Virus record (IMG/VR): IMGVR_UViG_3300010366_000029
Coordinates: 1-36,375 of that record
Direction: 5' to 3' (one strand)
From: a virus
Taxonomy: Duplodnaviria; Caudoviricetes
Length of the DNA: 36,375 nucleotides
This document shows, piece after piece, positions 266 through 34,612 of the stretch. Both the position numbers and the translations under genes were made by a program. The notes below the pieces were generated by a model. It was not told the origin of the DNA, made no database searches, and worked only from the letters and a program-made list of their open reading frames with translations. Position 1 is the first letter of the stretch, and every line of letters begins with the position of its first letter.

Positions 266-3200
266 GCAGTTCCACCGAGTAAAACGTGTCAATATTTCTG
301 ACATCAAACGCCAGTAACAGTTGCTTTGGCCGCGCTGGCAACCCTAGGGGCCACTCGTGATAGACTCGACTCCCCGCCGTGAGTGTGGGCAACACCTTCG
401 CCCCTTTGTCAGTAATGATGGTCGGGGTGACTGGTGTCCCAGCCGCATTGATGTCGAGCGTCAGCCGTTTGAGCACCGTCATCTGTGTTGAGCCTAAGCC
501 ATAAAAAAGTTGCTCGGGAATCTCAAAATAGATGCCGTCCCCAGGCACGAGCATGCGTGCCGGAATCCGTTCGTTGGTGAATTTATCCTCGATCATGACC
601 GACAGGTACACCGCCCGCATCTCGATTTCCACCCGTCTGAGGAGCACAGACTGCGTAAAATCGCCTTGCAGGGTCAACCCGACCAGATGACCCAGCCGAT
701 GCGGGATGTCTAAAAAGAGACGCCTTCCTGGCCCTGCAAACCCCGGTAACGTATGGGTGCCATGGAGATACTCCAGCACTGGGGTAATGCTCGAGGCCTG
801 GATATCGGCGTCGATGGTCACCCGTTCCGTCTGCAGCAAGATCTCATAGGGCTCTTGATAGCGCTGCGCTTCTTGGACTTCAAAGGTCAGGTTCGATTCC
901 AGCGCCACGCTACGCCCCTGGAGCTGGAGGCTGGCGTTAAATTGCCTCGCATCCATATCCGTGGTCACCACCGTACACACCAGGGCGCGTAGCTCCAACT
1001 CGCCACGGTAGTAGAGGGTCTGGGTGAAGAAATCCCCCTGGAGCGTCAGGCCAAGGAAATGCCGTTGCCGGAGTATCATCGTCTGGTGCATGTGCCATGC
1101 GCCCATCGGTGTCGAGGGCAGCGGCAAATCGCCTTCCGTGGACCGGATGACGGGAGTGACGGTGCCCCCCTGACCCTCGATGAGAAAGCGGTTATGATGC
1201 ATCAATTGGTCGAAGGGCTCTGTATAGCGTTGTTGTTGGTTGAGTTCAAAGAGTATGTCTCGACGCACATCTTCCGAGCGGCCAATGAGTTTCACCGGCC
1301 CTTGCGCCGTGATGAGTTCAAAGGTGACGGGACGCAGTTCCAGTTCCGCCCTGAACCAGGTGGTGGCATTGAAATAATTGCCCTGGAAAATAATCCCTAA
1401 GAGGTGACCCATCTGGGTCAGTGCCACACGGTGCAGTTGTCTCGGGGTGCCGGACAACGGAGCAAAATCCCGTTCACCTTCCGTGAAAAACAGCTTCGGG
1501 GTGACTGGGCCACCCGCCGCGTCATAGACCAGATACCACACCAGCAGATCGGTATCGAAGGGCTCGGCAGTCCGCATCTGCTCGGTCACCTCAAAGAACA
1601 CCTGCGTGGTGACACTGTCAGACCGCCCGATGAGTTTGATGATGCCCGAGGAGGTCAGCAGCTCACATGTCACCGGACGCAACTCGAGTTCCGACCGCCA
1701 TAGCGTCACCAGATGAAAAAAATCCCCGGCCAGTCGTATCCCCAGGAAATGCCCCATCTGAATGGGATACTGGCGGTGGATAGCGCGTTGCCCCCCACCA
1801 ATATTGGGCAGGTTGATGGTGCCCTCGAGATAGGTAAGCGACGGCTGGATATTGCCCCCGGTAAAATCGAGGAGCAGTGTATACGTGAGGATATTCGTGT
1901 CAAACGGCTCAGCCGTCCGCTGTTGCTCCGTCAACTCAAACCAGCATTCGGTATCGACGCTATCTGAGCGGCCAATGAGTTTGATGGTGCCCTGACTCGT
2001 GGCCAGTTCCAGCGTCACCGGGCGGAGTTCCAGTTCGGCCCGGTAAAAGGTCGTCGCATTGAAGAAATTCCCGGTGAGATAGAGCGCGATAAAGTGCCCC
2101 ATCTGGATCGGGAGTTGCCGGTGAATGTGCCGCCCAGGACCAGGAAAGCTCACCGACGGCAGCGCGATCGTGCCTTCCAGATATGCCAGGGTGGGTTGCA
2201 GTGCGCCCCCCATCATATCCAGCAGCAGCGTATAGGTGAGCAAATTGACGTCAAAGGGCTCGACTTCGCGCTGTTGCTCGGGGAGTTCAAACCAGCACAG
2301 TTGCCGCACATCGGTGGAGCGGCCCATGAGTTTGAGCGCCTTTTCCCCCATGGTGATATCACACGTCACCTGCCGCAGTTCCAACTCCGTCCGAAACAGG
2401 TTCATCAGAAACAGATTGCCCTGCAGTTCCAACCCTAAGAAATGGCCCATCTGGCGCGGCGTAATGTAATGGAGTTGGCGGGGCGTGCCCGTGATGGCCT
2501 CAATCGTCACGAGGCCTTCGAGAAACCCCAGGACCGGGATGAAACTCCCGCCCTGCGTGTCCACATCGAGGAGGAGTCCATAGGTCAGCAAATTGACGTC
2601 AAACGGTTCAGCCACCCGCTGTTGTTCGGGGAGTTCAAAATAAATTGAGGTGGTCGTCGACGCCGATTTGCCTATCACCTGGACGACCCCCTGTGGGGTC
2701 GTCAACTCCATGGTCACGGGCCGCAGTTCCAACTCGGCCCGGTACAGGGTGATGGGCGTCAGAAAGTTGCCACGCAGATGCACACCCGCCAGATGCCCAG
2801 GCCGATAAATCCCTGCCTGATGGAGACTTCTGCCCGTCCCTGTAATTGCCGCCAGGGTGAGCGAGCCTTCATTCCAATCAATGACCGGCGTAATACTCGC
2901 CCCATTCCACGTCGCTTCGATGGTGAGCCGATACGTGAGGAGGTTCGTGTCGATCGGTTCAGCGGTGCGCTGGTCTGCCAGCACCTCGAAGTAGATTTCC
3001 TGGGTGAGATCGGAGGACCTCCCCTTGAGCGAAATAATGCCTTGCGGCGTAATGACTTCCAGTGTGCAGTCTCTGACTGCTGCTTCCACACCCCAAAGGG
3101 CATGGCCACTCGTATCACTGCCTTGCAGTTCCACCGCTAATTCCCGGCAGGGATACCCCACCTGGAGTTCCACCAGATGTCTGGCGGTGGAGGTCACAGG

Positions 3201-5444
3201 TGGTAGCAGGGTGTGCGCCACCGTGTCAAGAATCGCCTGGGTGGTCGCGATATTCATGTTGGTATCGAGGTAAATCTGGTCCACCCAGCCGACCGTAGAA
3301 TCAGGGAAGATATACGAGCCCGTGCGGATCTCAAAGGCACGGCTACTACTCCCCAGTGCCTGATCTTCAACAATGACAAGGTTGGCCGCATCACCGGCCA
3401 CCAGCTGCTTCGTATCCTCTTCCCAGAAAAACGCGCTATACCCTTTGCCAAGGTCACGAATGAGTCCGGTCGCAAAGTTGCAGCTAATGGTCTGCGTGCC
3501 ATCCGAGATGAAGTACTGGTCCCTGGCAAAGGCCGCATACGTGCCTTCAAAGGCATTGAGATTCTCGACGTTCTCGCCACGAAAGATGGAAGTTAGCCGG
3601 TCAGGATAGAGCAGGTCAGAGCTGGAACCATTAAACACCCTGAGACCATCCTTGGCTCGCCAGATGATGCCGTATGGGGTCGGCACGACCGTTCTGGCGT
3701 GTTGTTGCAAGACACCAGGAATGCTCTCGAACTTATACGGCACGTAGGGCTCAGTGCCGTCGATGCGATACCAGCCTGCCACACCAATGACGTACCTCGC
3801 CCGTTGCCATACCACGATGCGGTACAGCGGCTGGTCATCCGCGGTGACACGGATAAACCCTCGACGGGACTCTGGTCTCCCAGGGGGGGAATAAAAGACC
3901 AACCCTTTCTTGGTGTCCTCGCCAGAAATCCAAAAGATGGTGGCTTGATCGTAGATAAAATCACTATACGTTTCGTCGGGCTTGTTGTTATCGGTCTGGA
4001 GTTCAGGCAGCGTCAAAATAGCGGAGTTCGCATTACTCCACATGCCAATGAAGTCGGCCACACTCGACGTGTAGGTCGTCGTCAGATTATCAGGGACCGT
4101 GTATTCATGGAAGAATCGTGCGCCACCACCTAACGTGCGCCAGATACTCCGGCGATCCACCTGACTATCGGGAGACACCGGCAACGCCGTATAATACGGT
4201 TTCTGCCGAAATAACTGATTCACCCGCTGTTCGGTCGGATTGGAGTTCGACCGTGCACCCGTCACACTACAGTCATACGTCACGAGACTCTGATAATCCC
4301 CCAGCGTGCCACACCCACCACGCATCAGGCACGTATCAAAATAGGCAATAAGCCCACTCATCTGATTCGTTTTCACCATGAGTTGCATGGCGACCACATT
4401 GGCCCACGTGTTCGTGTTGATCCCTGAGCGCTGAAACTGGCTTTTGGTCAATTGGAGCTTCGTCCATGTCCCCGCTGAGGCCACAAACTCCGTGCCGCCC
4501 TGCGGTGCCCAGGAGTCCGAAATCGAGGGATTCTGCACAATGCGCTGGGTCTCATCCGTGCCACCGTTGTCACCCACGAATTGCGTCTCATCCCCAGAGG
4601 CCGCAGGGGTCGAACCCACCCCGTCAATCGCCGGGTTCACGGTGATCGACGTGGGCAGAAACTTAAACTGGTAATAGTCAGAGCCAAAGTTCCCTGAGCC
4701 CACGTCAAATCGCAGTGTGATGTACTCAATACTGCCGCTATTGCCGTCCACACGCACAAACAGGATGACGAAGTCTTCGCCGGAGGAATCACCCGACGAA
4801 CCAAACTGTCCCAGGTTGATGGTGAGTGGTTTGGTCAGGCTGACCACGGTATCGGCTGGCACCGTGACCTTGAGACTCGTCCCGGATTCGACGATCGCCC
4901 CTTCATTGGCCACGACCACGACCTGTCCCGTGGGCGTGCCCGTGCCATAGGTGGCGCTGATGGTCCAGTCACCTGAGTTATTAAAGTCCTCGATGGCTTT
5001 CTGGGCATACGGCTGGGCCGACATATTGAAGCCATCTGGCGGTGGCGCGATGCCCCAATTTTGCACGTTATGGGCGACGTCTGCCTTGCGAGCATTGCCC
5101 CCACCGACCCAGAACAGCCGATCGGGCTGGGAATTGCCTGGGGGCAAACGGCGAAACGTCAGAGGATTGCTGTTTGAATTGGCGAAGACAAAACCATAGG
5201 GATAGGCATAGATCGACGTGCCAGCCGCATAGATCCGCGTATCGGCAAACCGGGTAATCGAATGAATCCCCGTGGCCGCCGTGATGACCGTATCGCCAGG
5301 AGCAATGCGGTATTCATGGGTGCAGATCTCGTGGATGCCACGCGCACGTCTGAGGAGCTGTGGTGGCGTCCCAGACGCCGGGCCATTGAGCGAGAGCCCT
5401 TGTGGGCTGGCCATATCGAGCAGTGACTGTCGCCTACTGGGCAC
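237..5444 (-). CDS. large virion tail protein (P22 gp10/tail-nozzle-like N-terminal half) with tandem C-terminal repeats
   Basis: 1735 aa; beta-rich propeller-like middle (VFYSPPGRPES, TVVPTPYGIIWRAKDGLRVFNG) resembling short-tail nozzle proteins; GAGGGG RBS before GTG; follows adaptor and fibre genes. Confidence 0.65.
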   Translation of the reverse strand: MPSRRQSLLDMASPQGLSLNGPASGTPPQLLRRARGIHEICTHEYRIAPGDTVITAATGIHSITRFADTRIYAAGTSIYAYPYGFVFANSNSNPLTFRRLPPGNSQPDRLFWVGGGNARKADVAHNVQNWGIAPPPDGFNMSAQPYAQKAIEDFNNSGDWTISATYGTGTPTGQVVVVANEGAIVESGTSLKVTVPADTVVSLTKPLTINLGQFGSSGDSSGEDFVILFVRVDGNSGSIEYITLRFDVGSGNFGSDYYQFKFLPTSITVNPAIDGVGSTPAASGDETQFVGDNGGTDETQRIVQNPSISDSWAPQGGTEFVASAGTWTKLQLTKSQFQRSGINTNTWANVVAMQLMVKTNQMSGLIAYFDTCLMRGGCGTLGDYQSLVTYDCSVTGARSNSNPTEQRVNQLFRQKPYYTALPVSPDSQVDRRSIWRTLGGGARFFHEYTVPDNLTTTYTSSVADFIGMWSNANSAILTLPELQTDNNKPDETYSDFIYDQATIFWISGEDTKKGLVFYSPPGRPESRRGFIRVTADDQPLYRIVVWQRARYVIGVAGWYRIDGTEPYVPYKFESIPGVLQQHARTVVPTPYGIIWRAKDGLRVFNGSSSDLLYPDRLTSIFRGENVENLNAFEGTYAAFARDQYFISDGTQTISCNFATGLIRDLGKGYSAFFWEEDTKQLVAGDAANLVIVEDQALGSSSRAFEIRTGSYIFPDSTVGWVDQIYLDTNMNIATTQAILDTVAHTLLPPVTSTARHLVELQVGYPCRELAVELQGSDTSGHALWGVEAAVRDCTLEVITPQGIISLKGRSSDLTQEIYFEVLADQRTAEPIDTNLLTYRLTIEATWNGASITPVIDWNEGSLTLAAITGTGRSLHQAGIYRPGHLAGVHLRGNFLTPITLYRAELELRPVTMELTTPQGVVQVIGKSASTTTSIYFELPEQQRVAEPFDVNLLTYGLLLDVDTQGGSFIPVLGFLEGLVTIEAITGTPRQLHYITPRQMGHFLGLELQGNLFLMNLFRTELELRQVTCDITMGEKALKLMGRSTDVRQLCWFELPEQQREVEPFDVNLLTYTLLLDMMGGALQPTLAYLEGTIALPSVSFPGPGRHIHRQLPIQMGHFIALYLTGNFFNATTFYRAELELRPVTLELATSQGTIKLIGRSDSVDTECWFELTEQQRTAEPFDTNILTYTLLLDFTGGNIQPSLTYLEGTINLPNIGGGQRAIHRQYPIQMGHFLGIRLAGDFFHLVTLWRSELELRPVTCELLTSSGIIKLIGRSDSVTTQVFFEVTEQMRTAEPFDTDLLVWYLVYDAAGGPVTPKLFFTEGERDFAPLSGTPRQLHRVALTQMGHLLGIIFQGNYFNATTWFRAELELRPVTFELITAQGPVKLIGRSEDVRRDILFELNQQQRYTEPFDQLMHHNRFLIEGQGGTVTPVIRSTEGDLPLPSTPMGAWHMHQTMILRQRHFLGLTLQGDFFTQTLYYRGELELRALVCTVVTTDMDARQFNASLQLQGRSVALESNLTFEVQEAQRYQEPYEILLQTERVTIDADIQASSITPVLEYLHGTHTLPGFAGPGRRLFLDIPHRLGHLVGLTLQGDFTQSVLLRRVEIEMRAVYLSVMIEDKFTNERIPARMLVPGDGIYFEIPEQLFYGLGSTQMTVLKRLTLDINAAGTPVTPTIITDKGAKVLPTLTAGSRVYHEWPLGLPARPKQLLLAFDVRNIDTFYSVELHVYAPNYQR
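240..3100 (-). repeat. intragenic tandem repeat, about 345-370 bp (115-123 aa), 7 clear units plus 1 degenerate
   Basis: Recurring ELELRxVT...LIGRS...FExxEQQRxxEPFD...QMGHFLG...GxF; ELELR codons near 2730, 2380, 2030, 1685, 1340, 995 and EIEMR near 625. Confidence 0.92.
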
Positions 5445-12898: not shown

Positions 12899-15153
12899 TT
12901 ATCCAGTACTACCATAAACGCCTCTCCATTCATCCGCCTGTGAAGGTTCGTGTGATTGGTAGACTACATAAACGCAATTCCAAGTACGTGGCGGTTGTAT
13001 TAGCACCAGGGCTCTTTATCCCTGATTTCTGTACCTCTCGGCACAGCCTAGACCATATCACCATCCCAGAGGGATGCCGGGCACTCGTGGATGTTTCACC
13101 ATGGCGATACCGCTGTAGGCTACTCCATCTGGTCGTTGAACCTTCACCCTGTTTCCAGGGCGCTTGGCTGCTGATTGCCCATTGCTGATTGCGTGACAGC
13201 ATCCGTATGCTTTTTAAAACCCTCAAGGCTGTCATTACTGACTCCTTTGTGGTGCCTACGGCTTTAGGGTATTCCAGCAATTCACCCGGTTCTCACCTGA
13301 CGCTTACGCTGCCAGGGGGACTGTACTACTAATAGTACCATCGTCAAAGTAGTCAAAAACAGGACGCAATTGTTATCGCCCAAACTCTTTATTTTAGGCA
13401 TCTTACGGTCACCCGCAAGGTCAGACCATATCATAACCCTTATACAAGGGTTCCGGGCGCTCGTGGGCGGGTTATTCTTGGGAGTCACCGCCTGGTCGTT
13501 AGAGGTTCTGGAGAACCGTAGCCCTCTCCAGCTTCCTACGGGATTGTCTTGAAAGTGTTTGACGATCACTTGAAGATGTTCCCCGTTTCACCCGGTTTGC
13601 ACATGAGGCTTACGCCGCCATGGGGACCGTCTCTTGATCCATTATGGAAAAATTGAGATCATGTTCCCCCTTCTCCGCCATCGCGAACCAGGCCGTCTGG
13701 CTGGTGAGGTAATGGCTCAGGGAGTACGTGATGTCTTCCTGCATCAGCGCATTGATCTCGTTATTGGCCGTGAAAGGCTTACTCTCACTGCCTAACGTCT
13801 CACGCACTGTGGCCCAAAAGTTATAGTGACACATCACATGCCCCATGCTTTGCAGCACCGGGATGTTGCGCTCGTTGGTTTGCCCATGGAAATTGGTAAT
13901 CGCGGCTTGTATGCCGGTCAACCCAATCTGCGCCGAGGCTGAGTTAATGTTGCTTCTTGCGACACCATCGAGACCTACGTGGTTGGATGATACAAGAGCA
14001 GCACCATCAAATGTGGTATAAGCAGATGTCGAGAACGCGAAATTCAAAACATTATGTGCATCAACCTCTAACCTGTAATTCGATACTCTCCTTAGCTCGC
14101 TGGCTAGCATATCCATCACGCCATATAACTCGTCTGATTAGTCCTATAACTTTCGTTACAGGTCGGACTTTATCTTCGCTAAAGGCACGTACCGACCGTT
14201 GCTATCTTTCGGTCGCCCAATAACGTCAGGCTTAAAGTCTCTGAGGCGTTCCGTTACAATGTCGTGAAGTTCTTGATCACGGGCACCATGGTTATGCAGC
14301 AAACGACATTGGCTAAACAACCAAAGTTCGCGCTTTGTATATGGAGCATTTGCTGCTACCGAGAGCCGACTTTCACAGAACTCACGTGTCATAGATGCCT
14401 GGGGACGCTTGGTCACAAGATAAGGCTCGATCACATCAAGCAAGGCCTTCACACGCTTACAACCTTCCCACACATTCCTGTATGAAGCAGCCCATGTTGA
14501 TCGCCGCGACTTAAGCGATTGCTTATAACCAGGAGACGTGTAGCGCGAAGCAATATTCCTGGCATGATCAATGAAAATTTCATTGGTATTTGATAGCGTA
14601 ATAACAGGCTTAATACCAATTTTGCAAACATTACGCCTGTCCGCGTCAATCCCTCGACGCCGGAAGCCAGGAATACTAATTGAGCCTTCACCTTCAATCG
14701 CCGCCACGAGCCACCCCAGGTCAAATGCTTCTTGAAACGTTACTGCCTGCGGATTGTCCAATACAAAGGATTCTTGCATCATGAGCACCTTTGTCTCTCA
14801 GGATATCCCCGCATATTGCCCGATCCAGCGCCACGAGTTTGAACTATACTAGTTCAATTTGGACGCCACATTTCGTATGTGACCTCGAACCCGGAGCCAT
14901 AGGCAACTGCTGTATGCGTCTTGGCATTGCCCAAAATGGGGGAATCCATCGGGAACGCATTCCCCTCCGGTTTCATCCCCATCGGACCAAGACCGCTGAT
15001 CTGCCTATTATTATAGGCTTGCCATGGCATGTCTATCACATTCACCCATTGCGGAAATTCCAGTGGACGCCTCCGTCCGGTCTCCATGTACACCCGGTAA
15101 ATCCCAGGTGCCAGCAGTGCCGAGTAGGAGTTGGTACGGATCGGAATGGGCAT
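12899..15153 (-). CDS. major capsid protein (Mu gpT-like), spliced: exons 15153-14863, 14134-13637, 13366-13340, 12991-12899; 302 aa
   Basis: Joined exons read in frame: ...YGSGFEVTYEMWR|DELYGVMDML...HDLNFSIMD|RPVFDYFDD|PRTWNCVYVVYQSH...EWRGVYGSTG*; family motifs SGLG, KPEG, FDGAALVSSNH, YLTSQTAWF, WRGVYGS; AGGAGG RBS. Confidence 0.92.
12992..13339 (-). ncRNA. group I intron 3 (348 nt, ORF-less, IA-like)
   Basis: 5' exon ends GAU pairing GUC (U-G wobble); P AAUUGCUGGAA, Q AAUCAGCAG, R UCAACGACCAG, S UGAUAUGGUCU; P9 GAGA tetraloop; terminal G. Confidence 0.92.
13367..13636 (-). ncRNA. group I intron 2 (270 nt, ORF-less, IA-like)
   Basis: P1 GGAU/GUCC with U-G; P10 CGUC/GACG; P4 ACGGG/CCCGU; P7 GACCA/UGGUC; P3 CCGGGUG/CGCCCGG; P9 GUGA tetraloop; terminal G. 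Confidence 0.93.
14135..14862 (-). ncRNA. group I intron 1 (728 nt) carrying a homing endonuclease
   Basis: P 14817-14806, Q AAUCCGCAG 14755-14747, R UCAGAGACUUU 14244-14234, S AAGAUAAAGUCC 14176-14165; P1 GGCGU/GCGCU, P10 ACGAGUU/AACUCGU, P9 GAAA tetraloop; both boundaries could shift together by 1 nt. Confidence 0.92.
14156..14788 (-). CDS. intron-encoded single-motif LAGLIDADG homing endonuclease
   Basis: LGWLVAAIEGEGSISI motif, ITLSNTN, LLDVIEPYLVTKRPQA; start may be ATG 14782 or 14779. Confidence 0.88.
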   Translation of the reverse strand: MLMMQESFVLDNPQAVTFQEAFDLGWLVAAIEGEGSISIPGFRRRGIDADRRNVCKIGIKPVITLSNTNEIFIDHARNIASRYTSPGYKQSLKSRRSTWAASYRNVWEGCKRVKALLDVIEPYLVTKRPQASMTREFCESRLSVAANAPYTKRELWLFSQCRLLHNHGARDQELHDIVTERLRDFKPDVIGRPKDSNGRYVPLAKIKSDL

Positions 15154-15169
15154 ACGCTATGTCCTCCTG

Positions 15170-15643
15170 TTAGAGCGCGTTATCCAGTTGCAGCCAGGTA
15201 AAGGCCACGCGCCCTTGCACCGTACCGGCTGGATCAATCAACGATTCGACTCTGAGCCGCACCGCCGTGGTCTCGGCCAGGTCGATATACCACAGACCAC
15301 TCGTGCCATCCTTCGCTATCCCGTATCTCGTGCCACGCTGGGCCACGGCTGACGTACCCGTGCCAAACGAACCCGAGTTATCGACACAGCCTACCCACTG
15401 ATCTGGCGTGTCAATCCGGCTCATATAACAGTCCGTCGAGCCATAGCCCGCTGTGGCCATGTCCGACTGGGCAATCCCCAGGATGGTGTTGAGCGCCGGG
15501 TCCGCCGCCGCTTCCACAGCCAGACCAGCCGTGGCAATGACGGGCGAACCCACCCGGAAGCTCGTGGCTGCGGCCTTGGGCATATAGGCCGTCACGACGC
15601 CCAGACCATTGGGGCGATACGGTTGAATCGGAGTCAGGGCCAT
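15170..15643 (-). CDS. capsid decoration/cement-like protein
   Basis: 157 aa A/G/T-rich, immediately upstream of the capsid gene, AGGAGG RBS. Confidence 0.65.
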   Translation of the reverse strand: MALTPIQPYRPNGLGVVTAYMPKAAATSFRVGSPVIATAGLAVEAAADPALNTILGIAQSDMATAGYGSTDCYMSRIDTPDQWVGCVDNSGSFGTGTSAVAQRGTRYGIAKDGTSGLWYIDLAETTAVRLRVESLIDPAGTVQGRVAFTWLQLDNAL

Positions 15644-34075: not shown

Positions 34076-34612
34076 ATGCCTTTCAAAGAGAAACAGAAAG
34101 ATAGCGATTGGAGAAAAACACGCTACGCCACTGATCCTATCTATAGATCAAAAGTTATTGCTCGCAACCTACGATGGCTACAGACACATCGGGAAAACGC
34201 CAGAAACGCCACACGTCGTTGGCAAGAAAATCATCCTGATGCATACCTTAAAACATCTAAGCGTTATCAAATAACGCATGCAGATGCTATTAAAGAACAA
34301 CAAAAAAAATGGAGAAAAGAAAATAGAGAAAAACTATCTATTAAAAATGCAAGACGCCGAGCAACACAGTCTAACTCACCAATAAATGATTTAACATTAA
34401 AACAATGGGAATTAATAAAATCACATTATAAGAAAACCTGTGTATATTGTGGAAAAAAGCCTAAACAACTAACAAAAGACCATATTATTCCATTATCAAT
34501 TGGAGGAGAACATACTTTTACCAATATAGTTCCTGCTTGTAGTTCATGTAATTCAAAGAAAGGAGTAGGAAAAGTACTCATCCCTATACAGCCATTATTG
34601 TTGACATACTAA
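34076..34612 (+). CDS. free-standing HNH endonuclease
   Basis: CVYCG...[31 protein letters not shown]; basic helical N-terminus; visibly AT-rich. Confidence 0.92.

Follow-up and report, generated by a model that had tools for sequence, protein, structure and literature searches.

The capsid locus and its genome setting

The window, which is the whole stretch of viral DNA analysed here (a contig of 36,375 nt), carries a phage head module with the gene order small terminase, large terminase, portal and three unnamed genes, followed by a capsid locus on the same, minus strand. The capsid gene is divided into four exons.

15168-15163, minus strand: purine-rich ribosome site in the sequence upstream of the capsid gene
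15153-14863, minus strand: exon 1, residues 1-97, ending in WR; 84 of 97 residues identical to the homologue P0001
14134-13637, minus strand: exon 2, residues 98-263, beginning with DE and ending in MD; 139 of 166 identical to P0001
13366-13340, minus strand: exon 3, a micro-exon of 27 nt, residues 264-272; 8 of 9 identical to each of P0001-P0005
12991-12899, minus strand: exon 4, residues 273-302 and the stop codon TAA (12901-12899); 25 of 30 identical to P0001

The joined exons form an open frame of 302 amino acids, and the junctions WR/DE, MD/RP and DD/PR all fall between codons. An initial annotation had obtained a frame of this length by removing 14862-14135, 13636-13367 and 13339-12992, which the open joined frame confirms, and its estimate that about 60% of the locus is intron agrees with the count of 1346 of 2255 nt (59.7%). 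The best homologue, P0001, is identical to the joined protein in 256 of 302 residues (85%) without any gap. Exon 2 was the query for the homologue set, which consists of 94 uninterrupted proteins of 297-317 amino acids from a search restricted to proteins of at least 292 amino acids. None of the 94 has an insertion or deletion within 5 amino acids of a junction and all are collinear with the joined protein at the three junctions, so the collinearity test proposed in the annotation comes out in favour of the split gene. Residues F267, D268, D271 and D272 in the micro-exon are retained in 90-93 of the 94 homologues.

The gene belongs to the family of HK97-fold major capsid proteins (PF25209/PF10124). 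PF25209 was above its cut-off in all three homologues tested, with 40 bits against a cut-off of 27 for the intronless P0001, while PF10124 (Mu gpT-like) passed in one of the three, the more distant P0017. The structure model of P0001 (pLDDT 88) matched phage capsids including HK97 in Foldseek, with E values from 1e-13 to 1e-9. Comparison by profile and structure, as the annotation had suggested, thus gives the expected family; the capsid identity that it read from Mu gpT-like motifs stands, although PF25209 is a nearer match to the family than Mu gpT proper. The exon pieces alone match neither Pfam nor PHROGs, and the locus is a base-resolved example of a capsid gene overlooked by ORF callers and family scans.

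Only one sequencing run contains the locus, and its label is soil metagenome. Capsid relatives are spread over assemblies of unrelated phyla, and the portal of the window was matched at 79 of the 94 capsid-gene loci. The window probably covers only part of a genome, because the contigs that carry the nearest capsid relatives reach about 52 kb and another assembly with the same exon 2 measures 48.7 kb. Promoter and terminator counts are no higher than the shuffle level. The G+C content is 47-53% in the introns and 41-55% in the exons, and does not set the introns apart. With E values up to 1 allowed, Rfam matched nothing in the window besides the three introns of the capsid gene.

Some further observations concern the surrounding genes. 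The large terminase is found as two ORFs (25097-23784 and 23794-23186, minus strand), which lie in different frames with an overlap of 11 nt and correspond to neighbouring stretches of a single profile, phrog_38 (220-541 and 550-712). No intron motif was seen at this place, and the two ORFs may represent a split gene, a programmed frameshift or an assembly error. Between terminase and portal there is an ORF of 642 amino acids (22387-20459, minus strand) without a family match. A free-standing HNH endonuclease gene (34076-34612, plus strand) lies in an A+T-richer stretch downstream of the primase, and the segment 25600-27200, where the structural arm gives way to the replication arm, is likewise A+T-richer and has few ORFs.

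The introns and their boundaries

14862-14135, minus strand: intron 1, 728 nt, P2 and P7.1/P7.2 absent; final base A14135, a predicted omega-A
13636-13367, minus strand: intron 2, 270 nt, without ORF, with a P7.1-type insertion; last base G
13339-12992, minus strand: intron 3, 348 nt, with a P7.1/P7.2-type insertion; last base G

In helices drawn by hand, every intron shows complete pairing of P1, P3, P4, P7, P8 and P9; P6 was placed for intron 1 only, and pairing is incomplete in the P5 arms and in P2 of intron 2. The guanosine-binding pair (G264-C311 type) is present throughout, as G14239-C14166, G13497-C13424 and G13134-C13051. P1 contains the U.G pair and comprises 6, 4 and 3 pairs in introns 1, 2 and 3, so that intron 3 pairs with its own exon by only 3. 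P9.0 and P10 have 2 and 4 pairs in intron 2, and 2 and 5 in intron 3, where the exon strand is offset by 3 bases. Subgroup IA-type phage introns are marked by additional helices (P7.1/P7.2) between P7 and P3; the insertion at this place is 31 nt in intron 2 and 44 nt in intron 3, and is absent in intron 1. A motif-order shuffle (0 of 20000) used a pattern derived from the intron itself and carries no evidential weight.

Frame, homologues and helices agree with the central claim of the initial annotation, a major capsid gene split into four exons by three group I introns. Its core elements and U-G pair in P1 are found in all three, but the GNRA-capped P9 it gave to each does not hold for intron 2, which has a P9 loop of 5 nt. 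The outcome of the covariance-model search that it proposed is likewise divided. Against RF00028, intron 3 scores 68.2 bits and exceeds the curated cut-off of 50, whereas intron 2 (42.7 bits, E 5.9e-9) and intron 1 fall below it. Only the 3' part of intron 1 is matched, with 19.9 bits in one scan and 23.2 bits (E 2.5e-4) in a scan of a 151-nt stretch, and its 5' part gave no group I match in Rfam; the match is limited to the 3' end because the predicted LAGLIDADG ORF described below traverses the core.

Judged by sequence, introns 2 and 3 are related to each other. From guide to P4 they match in 48 of 63 columns, with a score of 63 against a maximum of 32 in 200 shuffles, and the same alignment test found no such similarity of intron 1 to either of them. 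An endonuclease ORF was not seen in intron 3. In cultured phages, short core matches occur in 74 records for intron 3 and in 6 for intron 2, with no match for intron 1 or its ORF. A scan for the intron 2/3 signature rendered at least 119 loci, and among the matches listed only L191 aligned, weakly, to intron 2. The distal P9 hairpins of these two introns (13400-13377 and 13024-13007, minus strand) adjoin the 3' splice site and have the same 8-base loop motif, possibly a tertiary contact; a collection scan for the motif gave mostly chance matches.

The 3' end of intron 1 depends on the following elements.

14839-14826, minus strand: internal guide; 14831-14826 forms P1 with the last bases of exon 1 (U14863.G14831)
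14839-14833, minus strand: P10 strand, joined to bases +2 to +8 of exon 2 by 7 Watson-Crick pairs
14241-14234 with 14171-14165, minus strand: P7, with the guanosine-binding pair G14239-C14166 intact
14164-14163 with 14137-14136, minus strand: P9.0, two pairs
14162-14143, minus strand: P9, helix drawn by hand

Intron 1 very probably ends in A14135 and not in the usual G, because the reading frame, P9.0 and the P10 register agree. Among junction pairs within 9 nt there is no U...G pair that retains the conserved peptide, while for introns 2 and 3 the U...G pair given above has the top score in the same test. Of 12 candidate ends, A14135 alone gives two Watson-Crick P9.0 pairs together with a 7-pair P10 from +2, the register of the Tetrahymena intron. 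A 7-base P10 run was found in 177 of 20000 random 10-mers. A junction one base upstream (G...C ends) leaves the same peptide as the A-ending boundary, but without the U.G pair. A conventional end at G14134, with the 5' site one base later, after C14862, would give WRHE instead of WRDE. This boundary is improbable, even though it retains the frame and the near-universal terminal G, its P10 starts at +1 without mismatch and C14862 is able to pair with the guide as C-G. Position 98 is D in 88 of the homologues, R in 6 and H in none of the 94, the profile score is 29.4 compared with 36.8, P9.0 is unable to form and the U.G pair at the 5' site is lost.

Introns 2 and 3 have the terminal G of group I introns and intron 1, under the best-supported boundary, does not; it is likely a group I variant, with a precedent described in PMC6545197. 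The terminal A is known from one phage, since no second intron was found at any of the three sites. A second assembly, probably from the same sample, is identical over 12969-15400 at a word depth of 8.7. Neither the terminal A nor the ORF of intron 1 was remarked upon in the initial annotation.

Insertion sites and the predicted endonuclease of intron 1

In relatives with 78-85% identity the capsid gene is uninterrupted. All 81 viral and all 13 genome loci gave a single uninterrupted match, five being cut by contig ends, but these counts are biased against split genes because the best 80 of 191 loci were kept and the homologue search covered only proteins of at least 292 amino acids. Three pattern scans of viral contigs for introns at the same sites gave 12, 0 and 1 matches, none of them in a capsid gene or an intron. 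Among proteins the size of exon 2 there were four matches, one being the window's own and three continuing across junctions 2 and 3, and none of 33 short homologue fragments halts at junction 1 with a foreign tail. The match at one locus, L001, ended at residue 272, where the sequence continues without an intron.

When local conservation is ranked among the 302 positions, site 1 is 2nd and site 3 is 10th, with site 2 middling at 103rd. In this lineage the three introns have the look of optional elements gained recently. They are likely selfish mobile elements and not a control switch, because sites 1 and 3 are highly conserved and close relatives are intronless. Intron 1 would have spread by means of a LAGLIDADG homodimer that cuts intronless alleles near WR/DE, and introns 2 and 3 would be related elements without ORF whose nuclease was lost or is borrowed.

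14788-14156, minus strand: intron-1 ORF, 210 amino acids from GTG or 207-208 from the ATGs at 14782/14779; predicted single-motif LAGLIDADG

The ORF spans P4, P6, P7, P3 and P8, has its stop codon in P9, and is predicted to encode a single-motif LAGLIDADG homing endonuclease. The motif occupies residues 24-37, and E34, N67 and K127, invariant in 5 of 5 aligned sequences, presumably correspond to the catalytic residues of I-CreI. The structure model (pLDDT 83) matches I-CvuI, I-CreI and I-MsoI with E values of about 1e-7 to 1e-6, the TM score by target being 0.71-0.77 for I-CvuI/I-CreI, and the Atlas structure rows are PF14528/PF00961, LAGLIDADG clusters. There was no match to Pfam. The sole PHROG match, phrog_5046, would label the ORF as HNH, and this label was rejected since fold and motif are those of LAGLIDADG.

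A single-sequence scan for relatives of the ORF gave no loci. The scan with an alignment gave three metagenome loci, one of which (L094) is the window's own record, and four viral loci. Three close relatives (50-64%) are located on contigs of 0.9-1.4 kb. Homologues begin about 7-9 codons later than the intron-1 ORF, at the P4 strand. A hexamer resembling a ribosome site (14791-14786, minus strand) shares bases with the 5' arm of a P5-extension hairpin (14794-14763) predicted to have 7 pairs, and because of this overlap translation of the ORF and folding of the ribozyme may compete.

A more distant relative of the endonuclease (about 30%) is located at 2910-3560 of both L095 and L098, inside a group I-like intron that matches the 3' part of RF00028 with 22 bits. 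The gene interrupted by this intron is a different, unnamed one of about 360 codons and has no PHROG match; as read from the frames, the intron terminates in G. L097 is the same record as L095, and L099 and L100 match like L098.

Likely splicing of the capsid transcript and comparison with known systems

The most probable reading, at about three chances in four, is that an HK97-fold capsid gene carries three selfish group I introns that likely self-splice from the late transcript, the first of them likely ending in A. Splicing of all three is likely on the features of the sequence. In each intron the guide would pair with the exon end (U.G), a free guanosine would enter the intact P7 site and the exons would be joined. 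Introns 2 and 3 would follow the standard two-step reaction, whereas in the second step of intron 1 the terminal A would occupy the G site, held by the 7-pair P10 and the 2-pair P9.0, and would probably react more slowly. Retained introns reach a stop after 2, 8 or 11 codons. Early in-frame stops are known for group I introns in coding genes (PMC3984707), and would here free the ribosome so that the intron is able to fold.

There is no second copy of the capsid gene in the 36-kb contig, and full-length capsid protein would therefore require all three excisions, as the initial annotation had claimed. It had gone on to suggest that splicing could be a rate-limiting checkpoint for head assembly, an idea that finds no support here: relatives with 78-85% identity lack all three introns, intron 1 has a predicted endonuclease of its own, and the placement of the introns, with sites 1 and 3 so highly conserved, fits homing. 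A regulatory checkpoint, in which capsid output would be gated by the GTP level or the translation state over three consecutive reactions and slowed chiefly at the terminal A, is quite unlikely. It agrees with the need for all three excisions, with the 'molecular on-switch' proposed for phage introns in PMC11878797, and with the A-ending ND5-717 intron being less efficient in splicing than its neighbour (PMC6545197). However, a checkpoint requires a signal and a benefit, neither of which is in evidence, and Rfam found no aptamer or regulatory family in the window. If the introns are selfish, any limit that they set on capsid production would be a cost that the phage tolerates and not a designed checkpoint; intron 1, if slow, could impose a real one.

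In another reading the gene is a dead end: intron 1 would have lost its terminal G by mutation, or the record would contain an error, and this phage, or defective prophage, would produce hardly any capsid, if any. In its favour, only one genome is known, the terminase is likewise in two ORFs and the supporting contig has a word depth of 8.7. Such a dead end is very unlikely: no damage is seen in the exons, the helices or the endonuclease ORF, the registers of P9.0 and P10 fit A exactly and two assemblies agree. A further reading makes the three ribozymes a gate, with a slow, A-ending intron 1 dependent on its own LAGLIDADG protein as maturase and with skipping of exon 3 yielding a 293-aa subunit that could poison or modify the shell. 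Exons 2 and 3 share the terminal triplet GAT, the guide of intron 2 resembles that of intron 3, and the guide duplex of intron 3 is -3.3 kcal/mol with the end of exon 2 versus -0.3 with its own exon; a local 5-pair P1 extension favours the proper site. Skipping of exon 3 is predicted from the sequence, and would leave an open frame of 293 amino acids without the four residues that 90-93 of the 94 homologues keep. The gate as a whole is quite unlikely; if it were true, the buried ribosome site would set synthesis of the nuclease against folding of intron 1.

Features of the locus have parallels in several known systems. The initial annotation had listed nucleotide metabolism, polymerase, terminase and lysin genes as the usual places of phage group I introns, and reviews do stress genes of nucleotide and DNA metabolism (PMC12350094, PMC11878797), but capsid genes do not fall outside the known range. 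PMC7886860 describes group I introns in capsid genes of Delta-group crAss-like phages and, in the Zeta-group cMAG OLRF01000054, a capsid ORF in five fragments. The likeness is that of a phage capsid ORF fragmented by group I introns. The crAss-like case, with its five fragments, belongs to an intron-rich group of gut phages of 145-192 kb (PMC7886860), whereas here the phage is small, introns were detected only in the capsid gene and the junctions are mapped to the base against intronless relatives with 85% identity. Outside phages, the capsid gene of Faustovirus E12 has 13 exons with RNA-seq support (PMC6247863). It is also a major capsid gene that needs multiple splicing events, five group I introns being involved there, in a eukaryotic giant virus and not in a phage.

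Three group I introns in one phage structural gene are described for the tail protein gene orf142 of phage Twort, together with exon skipping, and 47% exon skipping is given for the DNA polymerase of SIOphi (both from PMC11878797). As in these phages, related adjacent introns flank a short exon. The differences are that the host gene here encodes a capsid protein, one intron has a LAGLIDADG ORF and likely an A end, and splicing is deduced from sequence.

Among the ORFs of phage introns the LAGLIDADG type is the less common one (PMC3984707), and the Bastillevirinae table in PMC11878797 has one such case. The arrangement in intron 1 resembles that of L1917 in Synechococcus sp. C9 (PMC1995217), where a single-motif LAGLIDADG ORF runs through P7, P3 and P8 with its stop in P9 and P2 is missing. 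The host of L1917 is the LSU rRNA rather than an mRNA, and the ORF in the capsid gene starts farther upstream, in the P5 region ahead of P6.

A search of open-access text found no publication on an A-ending phage intron. Coxiella Cbu.L1917 ends in A. PMC4990558 names this intron without mention of the terminal A, and passages of bioRxiv 2020.01.27.920355 gave no case of an A-ending intron. In the hexacoral mitochondrial intron ND5-717, a terminal A replaces the conserved G (PMC6545197); intron 1 shares this feature, but is a phage mRNA intron with an endonuclease of its own. With three introns in one transcript, one of them A-ending, and proteins of 85% identity encoded without introns as controls, the locus may serve as a test case for a relaxed terminal-G rule. 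The multi-intron capsid gene, the three introns in one structural gene and the terminal A each have a precedent, so the system is mostly precedented, and the A-ending, LAGLIDADG-bearing intron 1 is a variant of what is known.
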